Shown here: in pieces, positions 732 to 55,284 of the stretch | Numbering within the stretch: position 1 is the first letter of the stretch | How the letters are laid out: each line of letters opens with the position of its first letter | Assembly (NCBI GenBank): GCA_045532975.1 | Contig: JAZSGX010000067.1 | Span: 1 to 62,687, forward strand | DNA length: 62,687 nt | Source: Eubacteriales bacterium | Lineage (GTDB): Bacteria > Bacillota > Clostridia > Oscillospirales > CAG-272 | Direction of reading: 5' to 3' | The notes under the pieces: generated by a model | Database searches by the model: none | Told to the model about the DNA's origin: nothing | The model's input: only the letters and a program-made list of their open reading frames with translations | Program-made: the position numbers and the translations under genes

Positions 732-807
732 TCCGAATTAGCTCAGTTGGCAGAGCACCTGACTGTTAATCAGGTTGTCGCTGGTTCGAGCCCAGCATTC
801 GGAGCCA
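732..807 (+). tRNA. tRNA-Asn (anticodon GTT), CCA encoded
   Basis: Acceptor TCCGAAT/ATTCGGA, D arm GCTC-AGTTGGCA-GAGC, anticodon stem CCTGA/TCAGG with loop CTGTTAA, T arm GCTGG-TTCGAGC-CCAGC, discriminator G, CCA. Confidence 0.92.
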
Positions 808-929: not shown

Positions 930-1040
930 CGGACCGAGAAAAACAATTAAGTATTGTTTTTCGACGGGAGTTAACTAAAACAAGGAGTTTTGAAGCCGAG
1001 TGTATCGAGGCGCGCAAAACGAGTATGTTTTAGGAAGTTG
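930..1040 (+). repeat. Structured module, copy 1 (reference orientation)
   Basis: Contains hairpin AAAAACAAT-TAAGT-ATTGTTTTT (939-961), GAGTGTATCGAGGCG (998-1012) and GTATGTTTT (1023-1031). Collinear with 11762-11874. Boundaries approximate. Confidence 0.7.
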
Positions 1041-1045
1041 GTTTA

Positions 1046-1211
1046 GTTAATCAGGTTGTCGCTGGTTCACGCTTCGCGTCCACTCCAGTCGCATAGTCGA
1101 TTAACTTCGCTTCGATACGCTCAGCTTGTTACTCTTCTTGCTTTGTGGAGAGAACTGCGGCGAAAACAATTCTTAATTATTTTCGCTCTTGTTCCCCAGC
1201 ATTCGGAGCCA
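1046..1211 (+). pseudogene. tRNA-Asn 3' half (anticodon loop to CCA), interrupted in the T loop by a 126-nt module. No 5' acceptor strand.
   Basis: 1046-1068 matches tRNA-Asn 765-787 at 23 of 23 positions. 1195-1219 is identical to 792-816 (25 of 25; the tRNA 3' fragment itself ends at the CCA, 1211). The T-loop GAG is replaced by 1069-1194. A degenerate D-arm-like AGCTACTCAGTTGGCAGG lies at 912-929. Confidence 0.7.
1069..1194 (-). repeat. Structured module, copy 2 (inverted), inside the T loop of the tRNA-Asn remnant
   Basis: The reverse complement carries the same ordered blocks: hairpin 1160-1186 with a TTAAG-type loop, CGCTTCGATACGCTC (1108-1122, the reverse complement of GAGCGTATCGAAGCG), and the TTGTGGAGAGAA and CTCCAGTC blocks shared with copy 3. 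Confidence 0.65.
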
Positions 1212-1385: not shown

Positions 1386-1507
1386 ACCTACGGTGCCGCT
1401 CCAGTCATATGGTCGTTCTGTGTCGCAATCGCAGATCACTCCGAGAACTCCCTATTTTGTGGAGAGAATTTCGTTTAAAACGATACTTAATCGTTTTAAA
1501 CTTCATT
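1386..1507 (-). repeat. Structured module, copy 3 (inverted), inside a second tRNA-like T arm
   Basis: Flanked by CGCTGGTTC (1377-1385) and CCCCAGCAGTGGGAGCCA (1508-1525). Perfect hairpin GTTTAAAACGAT-ACTTA-ATCGTTTTAAAC (1473-1501). TTGTGGAGAGAA at 1457-1468 and CTCCAGTC at 1399-1406. Confidence 0.65.
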
Positions 1508-11527: not shown

Positions 11528-11638
11528 GCTCATTGATATAAATAAAGCGTATCAAGGTTTTGGTAAAACGGGTCGTCGGGGACGTCTAACCCTATGACAG
11601 GTATGTGGAACAGAACACGGTGGAGAAAACAGAAAAAT

Positions 11639-11664
11639 GGGACGCCGAGGGCGTTGTCCCCTAC
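11639..11664. repeat. GC-rich REP-like hairpin, copy 1
   Basis: GGGACGCCGAGGGCGTTGTCCCCTAC matches 29893-29918 at 25 of 26 positions. Core palindrome GACGCC-GAG-GGCGT(T/C). Confidence 0.7.
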
Positions 11665-11672
11665 ATAGGGTA

Positions 11673-11761
11673 CGTGGCACGGAACACGGCAAGTAAAATG
11701 TAAAGCACCCCACAATGCTTTAGGCACAGTGGGGTGATATTTGTAAACTAAGTCTGTAAGC
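11673..11761 (-). repeat. 89-bp direct duplicate of the rnpB 3' end, terminator and downstream flank
   Basis: 88 of 89 positions identical to 11875-11963 (offset 202 bp). Includes the last nucleotides of rnpB (GCTTACAGACTTAGTT on the minus strand) and the CACCCCAC/GTGGGGTG hairpin. Confidence 0.85.
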
Positions 11762-11874
11762 TGGCGACAAGGCAAAAACAATTGAGTATTGTTTTTGGTG
11801 CAGGAGCTTGCCAAAACAGTGGGAGTGACGAGACGAGTGTATCGAGGCGAAGGCAATCGCGTATGTTTTGAGCG
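11762..11874 (+). repeat. Structured module, copy 4, between the two rnpB 3'-end duplicates
   Basis: AAAAACAAT-TGAGT-ATTGTTTTT (11774-11796), GAGTGTATCGAGGCG (11835-11849), GTATGTTTT (11861-11869). Collinear with 930-1040. Confidence 0.75.
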
Positions 11875-11944
11875 CGTGGCACAGAACACGGCAAGTAAAA
11901 TGTAAAGCACCCCACAATGCTTTAGGCACAGTGGGGTGATATTT

Positions 11945-12349
11945 GTAAACTAAGTCTGTAAGCCGTGTTCTGTCGTTTAAGACGGTCATCTATCTTTGCT
12001 TTATGTTGCCATAAAGCTCCGCAAATTGCGTGCCACCCGGGGAAACGCCAAATGGCTTGTCGGGCTAACAAGATTTTCCCCATGCGGTGTTGCTTCGGAT
12101 AGGGTTTACACCCACCCTATGTTACCATAGCGTGTCGTGAGCTCTTACCTCACGTTTTCAACCTTACATAACGGACGGTCGGGGACGCCCGTCCCTACAA
12201 CCGTGGAATATTATGCGGTAATTTTCTGTTGCACTTTCCCTAAGGTCACCCTCGGCTGACGTTATCAGTTATCCTGCCCTGTGAAGCACGGACTTTCCTC
12301 ACCGTAATACCTTTCGGCAACATACGGCGCGACCGTCCAACTTAGTTCG
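11945..12349 (-). ncRNA. rnpB: RNase P RNA (bacterial, type-A-like)
   Basis: Minus strand carries GAGGAAAGTCCG (12290-12300 on plus), AGGGCAGG, AAGTGCAACAGAAA, GGTAAGAGCTCAC, GTAAACCC and ACAGAACACGGCTTACAG. P1 pairs AACTAAGT with ACTTAGTT. Ends are good to about 5 nt. Confidence 0.9.
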
Positions 12350-37120: not shown

Positions 37121-38797
37121 TCACATTTCAAAGCTTAGCTTAAATGACGTCTCTCCCTTTGGCAAAACGTAGTCTATAAGATATACGTTATAGGGTGCGC
37201 TGTCTAAGTGCTTGTATGCGGTTTTTATTGTTATTTTGGGCAAAAGTCCATTTTGCGCCTTAAGGGTAACGTCGTCAATTATAACCACGTCCCCTACTAT
37301 TTTTGGCTCTATTATGGAAACAAAGCGCTCCGTGATTTCCTTTTCCTCGGTTAAAATAAAGGTGTCGGACAGGGCAATTTTATTTTCCTCAAAGGCAAAG
37401 ACACGGGTGGATTTTTTCAAAAAGTCCATACCGAAGGCTTGTGCAAAGTCAAGGGTAGCGGTCCCCTTTACTTCGTCATACTCAACGAAAACGTCGTCAC
37501 GTGCTATATCGTCCTGACCTACCCCGTTAAACATAGGAATACTGTGGGAGTAGGCGCTTGGGTTAAAGAAGGTGTATCTTTCCTTTGTGTGATAGCCCGG
37601 CAGATATGGACCTGCACCGATGTCAGCAATAATTTGCTTATTGTTCCTTGCTAAAATGAATGAGGCAACATCTATGTGGTTGTGGCTCTCACCGTTGTTG
37701 CCACCCTTAACGGTAAAGCCGTAATTCTTTGTGCGCTTGGTAAAATAGCAGGAGTTTTTTACACTGTATGTAACGTTGTCTGCCATTTCCTCGGCGTTGT
37801 TTTCTGACTTATAATAGATAAAGGAACGAAGGGCAAAATTAAAGTGGGTGTTATCGTGTACAACTATACCGTGCTCTATGGGGAGCTTTTCCACCTCATC
37901 ACCGTAAACATGGCGCAAAAGGTGAGGCAAGCCTACGTTATATTTGGAGTCAAGCCCAGAGTCACTATAGGTTGCCATTACGTTTTTCTGCAAGAACATC
38001 TTACCTATAAACTTGGAAATTTCCTTTACCTTAGGGTTAGCAAACCAGTCAACCGCGCCCTTTGTTATCTCTCTTTCCAAAAGAGCATAGGAGGCAAAGA
38101 AGCCAAAGCCAAAGCTCCAGTATCCAACACCCTCGACACACATACCGTCGTTTTTGTAGCTTGCAAGGTAACATTCCATAGCGGAGTGTAGTCTTTCTTG
38201 GTTTTCAAAGAAAAGCTCGGGAGCTTCGTACATTAAAACAGAGCCGACAGCTCCTGCACATACCGCTGTCCAGTTGTTGTTGTGAGCTTCCCAAAAATAT
38301 TTGCGCTCTAGAAATGGCTCAATTGTTCTGCGCCTAATTTCATAGGTGATTCTGTCGATTAGGAGCTTTGGAAATCTGTCACAAAAAAGGCTTTTTATCT
38401 CTGCCAAGGCAAAGGAAGCGGAGGCGGCAAAAATATCAATCAAGCCAAAGTCAAAGTCCTTTGGAGTTTTGCCGTAATATTGCTCTGTGTAGTGACCGAG
38501 AGGTGCCCAGGTATAGTCGTTTAGGTAAGCCCAAACGGACTCCAAAAGGTTCAAGTAATATTCCTCGTTTTCGGGGTAAACCAAGGACATTAAGGCGCTG
38601 GACTGCAAATGGTCAAACTGCAATCTCCAGGTGCCGTTTTCGTTATCGTTCAAAATTTCGTCTGCGGTGTGGGGGCGTGGCGCTCTTTTGCTAAATGCTT
38701 CGTCATAAAGAGCCTTTAGCTCCTGTCTGTGCTGGGAAAATTCGTCACTTGTACGCACTTTTTCCCAAAAGCTCTTGTCCCTTGCAAAATCTAACAT
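37121..38797 (-). CDS. Heparinase II/III-like protein
   Basis: GGNNGESHNHIDVASF motif (H.H.D..SF) and an alpha/alpha toroid-like N-terminus. Start at MLDFARDK after AAGGAG. Confidence 0.6.
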   Translation of the reverse strand: MLDFARDKSFWEKVRTSDEFSQHRQELKALYDEAFSKRAPRPHTADEILNDNENGTWRLQFDHLQSSALMSLVYPENEEYYLNLLESVWAYLNDYTWAPLGHYTEQYYGKTPKDFDFGLIDIFAASASFALAEIKSLFCDRFPKLLIDRITYEIRRRTIEPFLERKYFWEAHNNNWTAVCAGAVGSVLMYEAPELFFENQERLHSAMECYLASYKNDGMCVEGVGYWSFGFGFFASYALLEREITKGAVDWFANPKVKEISKFIGKMFLQKNVMATYSDSGLDSKYNVGLPHLLRHVYGDEVEKLPIEHGIVVHDNTHFNFALRSFIYYKSENNAEEMADNVTYSVKNSCYFTKRTKNYGFTVKGGNNGESHNHIDVASFILARNNKQIIADIGAGPYLPGYHTKERYTFFNPSAYSHSIPMFNGVGQDDIARDDVFVEYDEVKGTATLDFAQAFGMDFLKKSTRVFAFEENKIALSDTFILTEEKEITERFVSIIEPKIVGDVVIIDDVTLKAQNGLLPKITIKTAYKHLDSAPYNVYLIDYVLPKGETSFKLSFEM

Positions 38798-38926
38798 AAA
38801 AAATCTCCTTAAAAAGATATATCTTTTTAAATATGATAGCATATAAGGGCGGTTTTTTCAATACTTTATTGACTTTTGCTTTCGTTTAATATATACTAAA
38901 ATTAACGAGAAGCTGTGAGGTGGATT

Positions 38927-52875: not shown

Positions 52876-55284
52876 ATGAATTGTCCAAAATGTAATGAAC
52901 AAATAAACGGTAGATTTTGTCCCGAGTGTGGGTATGATACGTCTATCAAAAAGCAATGTCCTGCCTGTGGAGCGGAAATAAGCGGCAGATTTTGCGAAAG
53001 CTGTGGCTATGATGGCACAAAGAAAAATAAAAAAGGCCCGTTTATTAAAAGGCACAAAATAGCGTGTGTGATTGCCGTGCTGCTGGTTCTTTGTATGGCG
53101 GCAGCTGTTCCGTTCGTTATGAATATGATGAATAACTACAGAGCAGACGTTATTATGGAAATTGGAGTAGGCTATAACAAGGCACAGGTCGAGAATTTAC
53201 TTGGAAAGCCGGACAAGGAAACTAAATTCGAGTGGGTTTATGTTGACAATGACAATTTGAAGGAAGTAGAAAAGCTTGGCGAGGAAGCAATGGAGGCATT
53301 AATGTATGGAGAGCTTGAAAGAGCTGAGGCATTGATGGAAGAATATGAGGAAAAGTGTCTTCGCTACGGGAACGAGCCGTTTGCTTGCGTTGAGATTAGA
53401 TTTGACGAGGAAGAAAAGGTAGACTCGGTATTGTTCAATCCAAATAAAAGCTATGGTAAGGAATATAAGCCTACCGGGGTTACAAGGGCGGAGCTCGGTT
53501 CCAGGTGTAGTGTAGAGGCGATTATGATTATTGACAACGGGGAAACTGAAATTGTGCCTGTGGGAATATATGAGGATCCCTCAGTTGGTGGTGGTAGAGG
53601 CGGCTACAGTGTTGAATACTCGGATGGCGGATGCTATTGCGGACATATAGACAGTGCGGCCTTTAATGCGGAAAAAACGGTAATTATAGAGCATTCATCT
53701 GAATTTGGTATGTATTCTTGGCAAAGTGCGGCGTGGATTGACAGCTATTCAAAATTGGAGTGCGTAGACGAAAGCTATGGCAGCGTTTTGTTTGTTGCAA
53801 AAATTATAGACGGAGTTTTGATGGGCTATTATGTTCGCTCAAGTGACAATTCGGTTATAATACCCGATATTGTTACAGCTATAGGTGATGGAGCGTTTAA
53901 GGATCGAGATGAACTTATAGGTGTAACGATTCCTGATAGCGTAATCAGCATAGGTGACGGAGCATTTGAAGATTGCGAAAATCTTAAAAGTATAACAATT
54001 CCTGATAGTGTAATCAGCATAGGCGATGGAGCTTTTTATAATTGTCCGAGTCTTGAAAGCAATGAATATGAAGGCGGGTGCTATTTGGGAAGCGAAGAAA
54101 ATCCATACTTGATTTTGTATGAAATAAATGATAAAGAAGCAACAAGCTTTGAAATTAATCAAGACACAAGATTTATTGGTGAAGATGCTTTCCATCGTTG
54201 CGACGACTTGGAAAGCATAACCATCCCCAGCGGTGTTACCAAAATAGGCGATGGAGTATTTTGTGGTCTTAGCGGTCTTAAAAGCATTTTTGTAGAGGAA
54301 GAAAACGAAAGCTACAAGTCAATTGACGGAAGCTTGTATACGAAGGATGGAAAAACTCTTATCACGTATGCTGCGGGAAGGAAGGAAAGCTCCTTTACAA
54401 TACCTGACTGCGTAACAGATATAGACGATTTTGCGTTTTTAGGTTGCTCTAAATTAACAAATATTGTAATACCAAATAGTGTAACAAGAATAGGCGAAAC
54501 ATTTGACGGATGCCAGGAGCTTATGTTTAACGAATATGAAAACGGGCTTTATTTGGGAAATGATGAAAATCCATATTTAGCTTTCGTTCGTGCAAATGAA
54601 GAAGAAATCACGAGCATTAAATTTGGTGAGAGCACAAGAATAATTTGCAAATCAGCATTGATGTGGCAATCTGAACTTACAAGTGTAATAATTCCTGAAA
54701 CCGTAATTAGTATAAGCGATGAAGCGTTCAGTGGCTGCTTCGGTCTTGCAAACATTACGATTCCTAACAGCGTAATCAGCATAGGTGACCGAGCATTTGG
54801 AAATTGCGAAAATCTTAAAAGTGTAACAATTCCAAATAGCGTGACAAGTATAGGCAATGAAGCGTTCAGCGGTTCTGGTCTTGCAAGCATTACTATTTCC
54901 GACAGTGTAATCAGTATAGGTGACAGAGCGTTTAGCTGGTGTAACAGCCTTGTAAGTATAACGATTCCTGACAGTGTAACAAGCATTGGGGCTGAAGCAT
55001 TTATCCGGTGTGACGCTCTTAAGAGCGTGATAATAGGCAATGGCGTAACAAAAATAGGCGATGAAGCGTTTAGTATGTGTGAAGCTCTTGAAAGTGTGAC
55101 AATAGGCAGTGGTGTGACAAGAATAGGCCGTGGTGTCCTTGGTGATTGCCGTAGCCTGACCAGTGTGACATTTAAGAATACAACGGGCTGGAAATACAAT
55201 GGAATAGCTGTTGAGGTTACGGATTCAAGTGAAAACGCAAAGAATTTTTGCGATTGTTGGAATTTATGGACGAGAAACCCATAA
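52876..55284 (+). CDS. Double zinc-ribbon, single-TM, BspA-type LRR protein
   Basis: CPKCNEQINGRFCPECG and CPACGAEISGRFCESCG, a TM segment at about aa 62-84, then at least 15 units of IPDSVISIGDGAF..C..L. Confidence 0.8.
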   Translation: MNCPKCNEQINGRFCPECGYDTSIKKQCPACGAEISGRFCESCGYDGTKKNKKGPFIKRHKIACVIAVLLVLCMAAAVPFVMNMMNNYRADVIMEIGVGYNKAQVENLLGKPDKETKFEWVYVDNDNLKEVEKLGEEAMEALMYGELERAEALMEEYEEKCLRYGNEPFACVEIRFDEEEKVDSVLFNPNKSYGKEYKPTGVTRAELGSRCSVEAIMIIDNGETEIVPVGIYEDPSVGGGRGGYSVEYSDGGCYCGHIDSAAFNAEKTVIIEHSSEFGMYSWQSAAWIDSYSKLECVDESYGSVLFVAKIIDGVLMGYYVRSSDNSVIIPDIVTAIGDGAFKDRDELIGVTIPDSVISIGDGAFEDCENLKSITIPDSVISIGDGAFYNCPSLESNEYEGGCYLGSEENPYLILYEINDKEATSFEINQDTRFIGEDAFHRCDDLESITIPSGVTKIGDGVFCGLSGLKSIFVEEENESYKSIDGSLYTKDGKTLITYAAGRKESSFTIPDCVTDIDDFAFLGCSKLTNIVIPNSVTRIGETFDGCQELMFNEYENGLYLGNDENPYLAFVRANEEEITSIKFGESTRIICKSALMWQSELTSVIIPETVISISDEAFSGCFGLANITIPNSVISIGDRAFGNCENLKSVTIPNSVTSIGNEAFSGSGLASITISDSVISIGDRAFSWCNSLVSITIPDSVTSIGAEAFIRCDALKSVIIGNGVTKIGDEAFSMCEALESVTIGSGVTRIGRGVLGDCRSLTSVTFKNTTGWKYNGIAVEVTDSSENAKNFCDCWNLWTRNP

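Follow-up and report, generated by a model that had tools for sequence, protein, structure and literature searches.

How can the last part of an essential, single-copy ribozyme gene come to lie twice around a short non-coding insert while the gene itself stays intact? This question is raised by the rnpB locus of the window, a term used here for the whole stretch of 62,687 nucleotides that was analysed. A preliminary description had read the locus as an attL–insert–attR structure almost devoid of cargo, and had noted three downstream motifs complementary to a conserved strand of the ribozyme. Both points are re-examined here by comparison with related genomes and with the wider family to which the insert belongs.

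The rnpB gene and its duplicated end

The rnpB gene is located on the minus strand (12348–11943) and encodes a bacterial type A RNase P RNA, as indicated by a full-length covariance-model match above the gathering score of 100 (Rfam RF00010, model positions 1–367, 247.4 bits, E 2e-79). It is preceded by a promoter with a perfect TTGACA-17-TATAAT arrangement (12384–12356). Its helix P12 has a 35-nt extra hairpin and contains a REP-like 25-mer (12173–12197, minus strand) of a hairpin family shared with the hairpins downstream of the gene. The conserved J/P4 3′ strand, ACAGAACACGGC (11962–11973, minus strand), lies directly 5′ of the start of the duplicated segment.

Direct-repeat analysis upheld the 89-bp duplication of the preliminary description. 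Its two copies, 11673–11761 and 11875–11963, are identical at 88 of 89 positions with a spacing of 202 bp, and each comprises GCTTACAGACTTAGTTTACAA (the last 21 nt of the Rfam rnpB match), a hairpin with 13-bp arms (11706–11736 and 11908–11938) and 33 nt of flank. The proximal copy (cassette 1, 11875–11963, minus strand) contains the last 21 nt of the functional gene (11943–11963), followed by the terminator hairpin T1 (11908–11938) with loop GCCUAAAGC, a U-rich tail, a 12-mer complementary to the P4 3′ strand and hence called anti-P4 (GCCGUGUUCUGU, 11892–11881), and the block G-CCA-C (11880–11876). The U tail of T1 is interrupted in this allele, and a simple scan made no terminator call. The distal copy (cassette 2, 11673–11761, minus strand) holds a pseudo rnpB 3′ end (11741–11761), the hairpin T2 (11706–11736) and an anti-P4 copy with one mismatch (GCCGUGUUCCGU, 11690–11679), again followed by G-CCA-C.

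Two tandem units of 69 bp, about 68% identical (11567–11704, minus strand), each consist of a REP-like GGGAC..GUCCC hairpin (11570–11592 and 11640–11662) and an anti-P4/N-CCA block; the native unit (11567–11635, motif at 11605–11620) is common to the empty allele L107. Motif GTGGMACRGAACACGG, announced as occurring three times on the plus strand, was found exactly at 11605, 11674 and 11876, with 0.05 matches expected by chance and no shuffle reaching three. The inverted repeat with rnpB likewise held and is perfect over 12 nt, ACAGAACACGGC (11881–11892) pairing with 11962–11973, its left arm. The three anti-P4 copies of the window arise from the 89-bp duplication and an older tandem duplication of 69 bp. 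That repeats at 53857–55070 share the 69-nt period is coincidental, these being BspA-type LRR coding repeats.

A structured repeat family at stable-RNA gene ends

The 113 bp between the cassettes (11762–11874, minus strand), designated module copy 4 from the outset, indeed match the covariance model of a family of structured repeats of about 112 nt (CM R1, 11879–11767, 81.7 bits). The module consists of a bipartite helix P1, an AUAGUCG-like box, a helix P2 with an invariant 11-nt loop UCGAUACACUC and a long hairpin P3, AAAAACAAU-ACUCA-AUUGUUUUU. The window contains exactly three further copies, all beside the intact tRNA-Asn(GTT) gene (732–807, plus strand), the 3′ end of which is the source of the repeats around copies c2 and c3. 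Copy c1 (932–1041, minus strand, 86.2 bits) is enclosed by two fragments of a pseudo tRNA-Asn, one D-arm-like and one from the anticodon arm. Copy c2 (1078–1191, plus strand, 86.5 bits) is bordered on one side by a fragment resembling the anticodon and T arms of tRNA-Asn (..GCTGGTTC), with a UUCG hairpin, and on the other by a duplicated tRNA-Asn 3′ end with terminator; the 25-nt direct repeat that flanks it, CCCAGCATTCGGAGCCATAAAAGAA, is also present in the real tRNA-Asn. After the diverged copy c3 (1394–1505, plus strand, 52.1 bits) comes the pseudo tRNA 3′ end CCCAGCAGTGGGAGCCA.

Beyond the window, one pattern retrieved the module from 105 genomic stretches, and nhmmer detected 108 copies in about 38 species-level metagenome-assembled genomes (MAGs) of gut Clostridia, RGIG1710 alone supplying 14 loci. 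No curated family of Rfam 15 (group II intron domains, ribozymes and sRNAs among them) matched the module even at E ≤ 10, nor was it found in the viral contigs, phage records and plasmid records scanned. Helices P2 and P3 are 91–96% paired, with compensatory changes in 24 of 28 pairs; the covariation score of 0.379 compares with 0.125 in shuffles and at most 0.137 with slid partners, and none of 500 shuffles reached the observed covariation by any measure. P1 forms a duplex of −9.0 kcal/mol with its own partner versus −4.8 kcal/mol with a partner from another copy. The module is thus a structured RNA or single-stranded DNA element with a conserved fold. Helix mismatches of the G-T and A-C types are equally rare (22 and 25 cells), so that the fold may act in RNA or in single-stranded DNA, and on either strand.

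The position of the modules is far from random. An intact tRNA gene lies within 300 nt of 25% of the copies, versus 4.7% of random positions in the same loci, and 34 of 83 copies (41%) abut a direct repeat that is 12 nt or longer (25 nt or longer in 18), versus 1 of 321 controls (0.3%). These repeats are the ends of stable-RNA genes, usually of tRNAs (tRNA-Asn, -Ser, -Pro or -Met) and otherwise the rnpB 3′ end, with junctions in the T loop, variable arm, anticodon stem or D arm and in both orientations. In tRNA-linked copies, the 5′ extension of the module also opens with CCAC. Many copies sit 5–10 nt 3′ of a hairpin. Typically, a few nucleotides separate the module from the 3′ side of a hairpin located at the end of a stable-RNA gene. 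Head-to-tail arrays occur in L021 (four copies) and L066 (three copies). Many copies, those of subfamily A, nested inside a larger repeat bounded by terminal inverted repeats, have no long flanking repeat. In the reading favoured below, the module is an element that is dispersed in uncultured gut Clostridia and mobile on an evolutionary scale.

It shares with REP/BIME, Correia, RUP/BOX and bcr1-type repeats and with MITEs a short, non-coding, multi-copy nature, a conserved secondary structure, proximity to terminators and a tendency to break short-read assemblies. Unlike them, it has neither terminal inverted repeats nor a short fixed target duplication, its loops (UCGAUACACUC, AUAGUCG) are unusually conserved, and it prefers tRNA and rnpB ends with long flanking repeats of 17–138 nt. 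Derivation from a DDE transposon as a MITE was discarded, the module ends not being inverted repeats and the flanking repeats varying from 12 to 138 nt. The location 3′ of hairpins recalls class C group II introns and the insertion of IS1397/IS110-type elements in REPs, but the module has no ribozyme, ORF, Rfam group II match or constant target motif, and a relationship to group II intron domain V is unsupported by sequence. Likewise, the heterogeneous 5′ flanks do not fit an IS200/IS605-type PATE or an IS91-type rolling-circle element with a constant 4–5-nt target (e.g. TTAC; GTTC/CTTG); of 80 distinct flanks, only 17 have GTTC in the 34 nt upstream, versus a 9% background, mostly in tRNA T loops. 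Reading of the alignment revealed no RYYYAAC ... GTTRRRY boxes (R″/L″–L′/R′) of integron attC sites at the P1 arms.

Alleles of the rnpB end and their origin

The comparison of rnpB loci took in about six closely related species-level loci. In the species of the window, L107 and L108 are empty, with one cassette and no module; over 1 kb they share 98.2–98.5% identity with the window, and the 162-aa protein that they encode is identical. L110 is a filled allele of this species. The structure is thus polymorphic within a species. Locus L106, from a related species, is also empty and was the one locus recovered by a metagenome scan with the rnpB 3′ junction. A duplication fixed in all relatives, which the preliminary description had set against mobility, is not what these flanks display. 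One related species has three alleles, L129, L126/L127 and L128/L130. Paralogues of the 289-aa protein (P0013, P0017, P0019) showed no synteny.

That an assembler collapsed or expanded a repeat is very improbable. Short-read metagenome assemblies do often break here, L110 starting inside the module and L113 ending at the motif. However, the two 89-bp copies differ by one base, and the order cassette–module–cassette recurs in two MAGs from GenBank and in four assemblies made independently for a related species; the finding of the same architecture in L110 and, in a related species, in L126–L128 and L130 speaks against an artefact.

The cassette of the window is only 72.9% identical to that of L107, from its own species, but 87.6–88.8% identical to the distal cassette of L126/L128, from another species with an rnpB that is 82.9% identical; it is nearer to the L126 distal and L106 cassettes than to its own species' cassette. 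A simple target-site duplication of native sequence is excluded for this species, since the repeat and the native cassette of the empty allele share only ~72% of their positions. The modules of the window and of L126/L128 are 84.5–85.3% identical. Between species, the module and the foreign-type (type II) cassette are thus more alike than rnpB itself, which points to horizontal movement, the ~202-bp unit spreading and being reshuffled by recombination. The window, L091, L096, L112 and L126–L130 share one insertion point, after ...CCACG(C/T)G. The order of cassettes varies. In L091, the element-type cassette is on rnpB and the native type is distal; in L126/L128, the order is opposite, with the foreign cassette distal; in the window, both are of the foreign type. 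L129 and L112 retain module scars of 22–33 nt.

Several of these features are those of classical site-specific integration, in which a tiny cis-mobilizable remnant (the module plus an attP carrying the rnpB 3′ end) would be inserted by a tyrosine integrase whose gene lies in another place, with attL and attR represented by the 89-bp repeats. As in tRNA- and tmRNA-targeting islands and their cargo-less remnants, the repeats start within a stable-RNA gene, extend past its 3′ end and restore it, the proximal copy supplying the rnpB 3′ end; empty sites, tandem arrays like those of L021 and L066, and decayed gene-end fragments are common to both, and the cassette order of L091 is as expected. In contrast to such islands, the insert is just 113 bp, and no integrase or other recombinase was detected in the 62.7-kb window by motif screening followed by Pfam analysis of candidates; ORF 37121–38842, flagged by the integrase/reverse-transcriptase motif screen, shows only a weak heparinase-like Pfam match. 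No recombinase, transposase or reverse transcriptase recurs within 2.5 kb of ~100 module copies, and clustering of the ORFs within this distance of all modules gave no recurrent partner gene, integrase-like ORFs being present at two loci (L048, L070). Truncated modules fused to other conserved sequence were considered as ends of autonomous elements, but their neighbours are ABC transporters and housekeeping genes. Furthermore, the repeats around this one module family come from at least five different RNA genes, with varied internal junctions and both orientations, which is not expected from a single site-specific integrase. A single integration should give one native and one element-borne copy, so that the two foreign cassettes of the window argue against it; together with the distal foreign cassette of L126/L128, they would be difficult to reconcile with a single crossover point, which the order in L091 does fit. 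The literature search gave no support for rnpB as a known integrase target. The attL–insert–attR reading therefore stands in part: the insert geometry, the intact rnpB and the empty sites agree with it, whereas the lack of an integrase in the window or recurrently near the modules, and the two foreign cassettes of the window, do not. Classical integration is regarded as unlikely.

A purely local origin has a somewhat smaller chance still. It supposes that an old module resident behind rnpB was swept into a tandem duplication that arose spontaneously, through slippage or through unequal crossing over between microhomologies, with no movement between genomes. The exact period, the head-to-tail arrangement of cassette, module and cassette, and a joint microhomology of only 2–3 nt are compatible with it, and recombination between the 38-nt repeats can account for short alleles as derivatives of long ones. 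A precedent without any module exists in E. coli K-12, where tandem 113-bp repeats were reportedly described by Reed et al. in 1982 with the M1 RNA gene sequence. Inspection of NC_000913 verified ~3.7 such units behind rnpB; the literature search on them gave nothing useful. The window qualifies as an rnpB 3′-end tandem repeat of this type, since in both bacteria the units lie head-to-tail directly behind rnpB, each with the 3′-terminal segment of the gene and a rho-independent terminator. In E. coli, the match between the pseudo copies and the real gene breaks off at the corresponding place, in the P4 3′ strand immediately ahead of CGGCUUA. However, the E. coli unit (113 bp) has no folded module and no anti-P4 complement and keeps in sense 21 nt upstream of the P4 break, whereas that of the window (~202 bp) contains a member of a dispersed family, starts after P4 and is polymorphic among strains. 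The cassette type incongruent with species, the dispersal of the module family across many genomes and contexts, and the recurrence of repeat-flanked modules at many tRNA genes weigh against a local origin.

The explanation that is favoured, with a confidence slightly above even, is that the rnpB 3′ end is a strain-variable tandem array of ~202-bp units in which modules and cassettes recombine through gene-end homology. A unit would comprise an ~89-bp cassette (the ~21 terminal nt of RNase P RNA, the terminator hairpin with loop GCCUAAAGC, the U-rich tail, the anti-P4 12-mer and N-CCA-C) and one folded non-coding module of ~112 nt. The module would travel with an adjoining copy of the terminal segment of its host gene, and this segment would act as a homology region, or att-like site, by means of which the unit enters the locus, leaves it or shifts along it by recombination. 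Crossing over within the conserved stretch ACAGAACACGGCTTACAGA would place the incoming cassette on rnpB and push the native one distally, as in L091; a crossover in the likewise conserved anti-P4/CCAC/module-start region would leave the native cassette on rnpB with the module and foreign cassette distal, as in L126 and L128. Recombination between repeats may then lead to the loss of units with scars (L129, L112) or to a swap of the cassette on rnpB, and the window allele, with two type II cassettes identical at 88 of 89 positions, may be a recent product of such duplication or conversion. The gene would keep its function through the proximal cassette, which in every case provides a P1 3′ strand that is compatible, together with a terminator. 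Against this recombining array, the homology tracts of 9–38 nt are short for RecA-type recombination, and the two foreign-type cassettes of the window require the assumption of at least two events or of gene conversion. In addition, since many copies (those of subfamily A) have no long repeat, the repeats may reflect selection for intact essential genes rather than insertion chemistry.

The complement of P4 and the significance of the locus

Throughout the clade, each rnpB locus that lacks the module contains a single copy of the anti-P4 motif; the 12-mer appears to be native to the rnpB locus and not a by-product of insertion. It is invariant in the approximately six species-level rnpB loci (as an 11-mer in L126/L129) while its surroundings diverge, and the terminator loop GCCUAAAGC is invariant across all rnpB loci compared. 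CCA follows after one variable nucleotide in 12 of 13 copies of the block, which matches by sequence the geometry of a tRNA-like minihelix (a 12-bp helix, then N73-CCA). In RNA folding, the predicted helix between the P4 3′ strand and anti-P4 dominates both the minimum free energy and the centroid structures (z-scores −4.8 to −7.3); in L128, where a change in the P1 3′ strand compensates, it lengthens to 22 bp. By this prediction, read-through RNA could pair with the P4 3′ strand, as the preliminary description had proposed.

The conserved downstream block may be a functional cis element of rnpB, a doubtful interpretation that is compatible with any of the others. The read-through sequence GCCGUGUUCUGU and the P4 3′ strand would form a 12-bp helix plus N-CCA that sequesters the catalytic core and mimics a tRNA acceptor/T minihelix; read-through precursors would be inactivated, processed or cleaved by RNase P or by tRNA 3′-end enzymes, and the extra copies of the window would be further fail-safe sites. 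The conservation of 12-mer and CCA amid divergent surroundings, the retention of the 12-mer in loci without module, the dominance of the helix in the folds and the interrupted U tail of T1 favour such a role. Conversely, P4 is invariant, so that the helix cannot covary, the sample of species is small and closely related, and the CCAC that also starts the 5′ extension of tRNA-linked modules means that the block could be a scar of the element, conserved for its use in recombination. The resemblance to minihelix substrates of RNase P (12 bp, N73 and CCA) lies in the predicted helix, the variable nucleotide and the conserved CCA; unlike in such substrates, the ‘loop’ is ~69 nt with a terminator hairpin and the 5′ strand belongs to the ribozyme itself. 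If functional, the anti-P4/N-CCA block would be the first cis element known to exert control over RNase P RNA through base pairing with the catalytic core.

It is a long shot that both linked readings hold together, namely a novel type of protein-less mobile unit made of a module and an adjoining mimic of an essential stable-RNA gene end (tRNA or RNase P RNA), and a self-targeting block behind rnpB. If the former is true, a universally conserved gene end would serve as portable homology for entering genomes without killing the gene. If the latter is true, the P4 complement, N and CCA would fold read-through RNase P RNA into a tRNA-like minihelix that buries the catalytic core, the transcript becoming a substrate of RNase P or of tRNA 3′-end enzymes in a ribozyme quality control or feedback loop. 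The module accounts for many contig breaks in MAGs of gut Clostridia, and the unexplained rnpB repeats of E. coli are revived as part of a wider phenomenon. In this essential single-copy ribozyme gene, the last helix strand and the terminator form an exchangeable cassette that differs within one species. Linked to this exchange is a family of structured repeats that had not been catalogued before and that colonizes tRNA gene ends as well. The locus thereby offers a testable system for small non-coding elements that settle in or beside essential RNA genes without inactivating them.

The duplicated 3′ end of rnpB

The full-length type A RNase P RNA gene (rnpB, 12348..11943, minus strand) is preceded by a perfect sigma-70 promoter, and its 3′ end occurs twice. 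The 89-bp tandem duplication around a 113-bp module claimed in the preliminary description is confirmed, the blocks at 11673-11761 and 11875-11963 being identical at 88 of 89 positions with an offset of 202 bp. Read in the rnpB direction, each block (‘cassette’) comprises GCTTACAGACTTAGTTTACAA (the 21 3′-terminal ribozyme nucleotides, forming the P1 3′ strand), a terminator hairpin with 13-bp arms and loop GCCUAAAGC, a U-rich tail, and GCCGTGTTC(T/C)GT followed by GCCACG. The intervening 113 bp are a module copy. Exactly four copies occur in the window, the remaining three being interspersed with fragments of pseudo-tRNA-Asn that follow the 5S/tRNA-Asn cluster. Loop GCCUAAAGC, at 11921-11925 in the proximal (T1) and 11719-11723 in the distal (T2) terminator, recurs in all related loci; among the rnpB loci compared, the loop GCCTAAAGC is invariant across species over covarying stems, which is unusual for an intrinsic terminator.

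Helix P12 carries a 35-nt insertion formed by a 25-nt REP-like hairpin (TAGGGACGGGCGTCCCCGACCGTCC; 12173-12197, minus strand), the RNA being 406 nt long versus 371-372 nt in related species. Diverged copies of this 25-mer lie just downstream of rnpB (11570-11592 and 11640-11662), and its family also has members elsewhere, at unrelated loci in further MAGs (L079 twice, L086 and L089; L-numbers denote compared loci from other assemblies). The 69-nt period shared by this flank and the repeats at 53857-55070 is a coincidence, the latter encoding BspA-type leucine-rich repeats (ORF 52876-55284).

A known analogue is the arrangement of Escherichia coli K-12 (L111, NC_000913 3269835-3270256), where ∼3.7 tandem 113-bp units, each with the terminal segment of rnpB and its terminator, follow the gene; these repeats were reportedly described in the original paper on the M1 RNA gene. 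The E. coli pseudo copies leave the gene sequence within the P4 3′ strand, immediately ahead of CGGCUUA, a position homologous to the break found here; in each of them an 18-nt segment, GCTATACCCAAAAGAAAG or ACTATACCCAAAAGAAAG, takes the place of the P4-strand AGAACC. In contrast to E. coli, the present locus contains a dispersed structured module, carries a complement of P4 and is demonstrably polymorphic. It represents a new form of two known types of feature, structured repeats and rnpB 3′-end tandem repeats. Assignment to a MITE, a PATE, an IS91-type element, attC or any Rfam family failed the respective tests.

A conserved complement of the P4 strand

The 16-mer listed in the preliminary description was correctly described: it occurs three times in the window versus 0.05 expected by chance, and its core forms, with ACAGAACACGGC of rnpB, an inverted repeat that matches at all 12 nt. 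Its interpretation changes, as all rnpB loci seen, whether or not they carry a module, have an invariant CCGTGTTCTGT 10-25 nt past the terminator, flanked by a freely diverging spacer; in most loci a preceding G extends it to a 12-mer. This ‘anti-P4’ block is therefore a native, conserved feature of the rnpB locus, and the 89-bp duplication, together with an older 69-bp tandem duplication of the REP-like hairpin and the block, accounts for the three copies in the window. Next to the block comes a nucleotide that may be A, G, C or T, and then CCA-C, which 12 of 13 copies retain; the N-CCA lies at 11877-11880, 11675-11678 and 11606-11609 (minus strand) and also in all related rnpB loci.

When the read-through 3′ region is folded, the P4 3′ strand and the anti-P4 block are predicted to form a 12-13-bp helix enclosing the terminator hairpin (z-scores −4.8 to −7.3), lengthened to a predicted 22 bp in L128. 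Twelve base pairs followed by N-CCA is also the layout of the tRNA acceptor/T minihelix (N73-CCA), a resemblance that is a lead rather than a result. That the anti-P4/N-CCA block is functional would be compatible with a recombining unit, an integrase or a local duplication alike; we consider it rather improbable. Since CCAC also opens the 5′ extension of tRNA-linked modules, the block could alternatively be an element scar retained as a recombination anchor.

The module family and its surroundings

Searching a species-representative genome collection with one degenerate pattern yielded 105 stretches with the module, nearly all from uncultured gut Clostridia (‘Clostridia bacterium RGIG...’, Oscillospiraceae SIG..., Eubacteriales and ‘Ca. 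Avispirillum’); the module was absent from the viral contigs, phages and plasmids searched. Over these loci nhmmer retrieved 108 copies, in tandem runs of up to four, a single MAG supplying 14 loci, many at contig ends. According to a 66-sequence alignment, the module (∼112 nt) consists of a bipartite P1, a conserved AUAGUCG box, a two-part P2 with the invariant closing loop UCGAUACACUC, a CUCC box and a long A/U-rich hairpin P3 (loop ACUYA). The helices covary strongly: P2 and P3 are paired at 91-96%, 24 of 28 helix pairs show double changes, and every measure exceeds 500 shuffles and all slid controls. P1 arms pair at −9.0 kcal/mol with their own partner versus −4.8 with that of another copy. 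No Rfam family matches, even with the threshold relaxed to E ≤ 10. Since G-T (22 cells) and A-C (25 cells) mismatches are equally rare, the fold may act in RNA or in single-stranded DNA; RNA of the forward strand (here the rnpB strand) is favoured by the UUCG/UACG tetraloop hairpins that immediately precede several copies.

Module copies are associated with the ends of stable-RNA genes. An intact tRNA gene lies within 300 nt of 25% of them versus 4.7% of random positions in the same loci (a fivefold enrichment), and 41% of testable copies abut a direct repeat ≥12 nt long at one end versus 0.3% of control windows. These repeats are terminal gene pieces with adjoining flank: T loop to 3′ end plus terminator (tRNA-Asn, tRNA-Ser), 5′ end to D arm in antisense orientation (tRNA-Pro, tRNA-Asn), the anticodon stem (tRNA-Met) or the rnpB 3′ end. 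Conserved target motifs, terminal inverted repeats and short duplications of fixed length are all absent; in many copies, a hairpin lies 5-10 nt upstream of the module.

The commonest subfamily lacks long flanking repeats and is embedded in a larger repeat that is bounded by terminal inverted repeats (AAATTCGGGTTTATCGGGG...) and contains A/T-loop hairpins (L034, L043, L044, L083 and L089; about −55 to +300 around the module), and it is this composite, not the module alone, that proliferated in RGIG1710 and ‘Ca. Avispirillum’. Other copies are 5′-truncated (model positions ∼30-110; L005, L024, L028, L030, L046, L047, L057, L060 and L078), with no transposase nearby; in the five whose upstream flank was read (L005, L024, L028, L030 and L060), the truncated end joins a common conserved sequence (...CCCGCTCAGNCTTTGCAAAAGCAAAG...).

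In the window, two tandem 5S rRNA genes (333-450 and 525-642, 97% identical) lie between tRNA-Lys and tRNA-Asn, a layout shared with L008, L065 and L084. An imperfect ∼38-bp palindrome (784-869), made of the tRNA-Asn 3′ half, its terminator and an inverted 3′-half copy, is comparable to the inverted repeat that P4 and anti-P4 form on either side of the rnpB terminator. Three modules, representing both orientations, interrupt the pseudo tRNA-Asn remnants at 890-1535 (D arm, anticodon/T arm, 3′ end plus terminator), with UUCG/UACG tetraloop hairpins between GGTTC and module.

Alleles, cassette types and a proposed recombining unit

Comparison of rnpB flanks in relatives revealed empty-site variants. 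L107 and L108, from the same species as the window (identical 162-aa neighbour; 98.2-98.5% identity over 1 kb), read rnpB, one cassette, anti-P4 motif and REP-like hairpin, with neither module nor duplication; L106, from a related species, is also empty. L110 (same species) has the module and the window-type cassette, in L096 and L091 (related species) the same point is occupied and the distal copies have decayed, two modules being present in L091, and in L112 (related species) the module is reduced to 33 nt. One further species has three alleles across independent assemblies: cassette a, motif and 22 nt of module (L129); cassette a, module, cassette b and remnant (L126/L127); and cassette c, module, cassette b and remnant (L128/L130). 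Independent assemblies exclude an assembly artefact.

The attL-insert-attR structure proposed in the preliminary description is partly supported, by the flanking-repeat geometry and the empty alleles. Integrase-mediated integration of the classical type is nevertheless unlikely: no recombinase gene was found in the window, none recurs within 2.5 kb of about 100 module copies, and the diversity of targets is a poor fit. The likeness to tRNA-targeting islands is one of geometry only.

Cassette types do not track species. With L107, of the same species, the window shares 72.9% cassette identity; with L126/L128 the figure is 87.6-88.8% for their distal cassette b, 82.9% for rnpB and 84.5-85.3% for the modules. 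The distal copy of L091 is L107-like. A purely local tandem duplication is contradicted by this incongruence and appears quite improbable. By hand inspection, the P1 3′ strand of either cassette type still pairs with the unchanged 5′ end.

We lean, by a modest preference, towards a recombining ∼202-bp unit of module plus gene-end cassette, and infer both its route of recombination and its transfer between genomes. Crossovers in the conserved stretch ACAGAACACGGCTTACAGA would give the L091 arrangement, and those in the conserved anti-P4/CCAC/module-start stretch that of L126/L128. Repeat-mediated deletion would produce short and empty alleles, recombination between two 38-nt repeats (motif, CCACGTG and module start) leaving L129, and the rnpB-attached cassette would be swapped. 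The near-identical pair in the window would reflect recent duplication or conversion. Two minority readings would be substantially new if true, namely that mimicry of gene ends is an integration strategy and that read-through RNase P RNA undergoes tRNA-like self-pairing.
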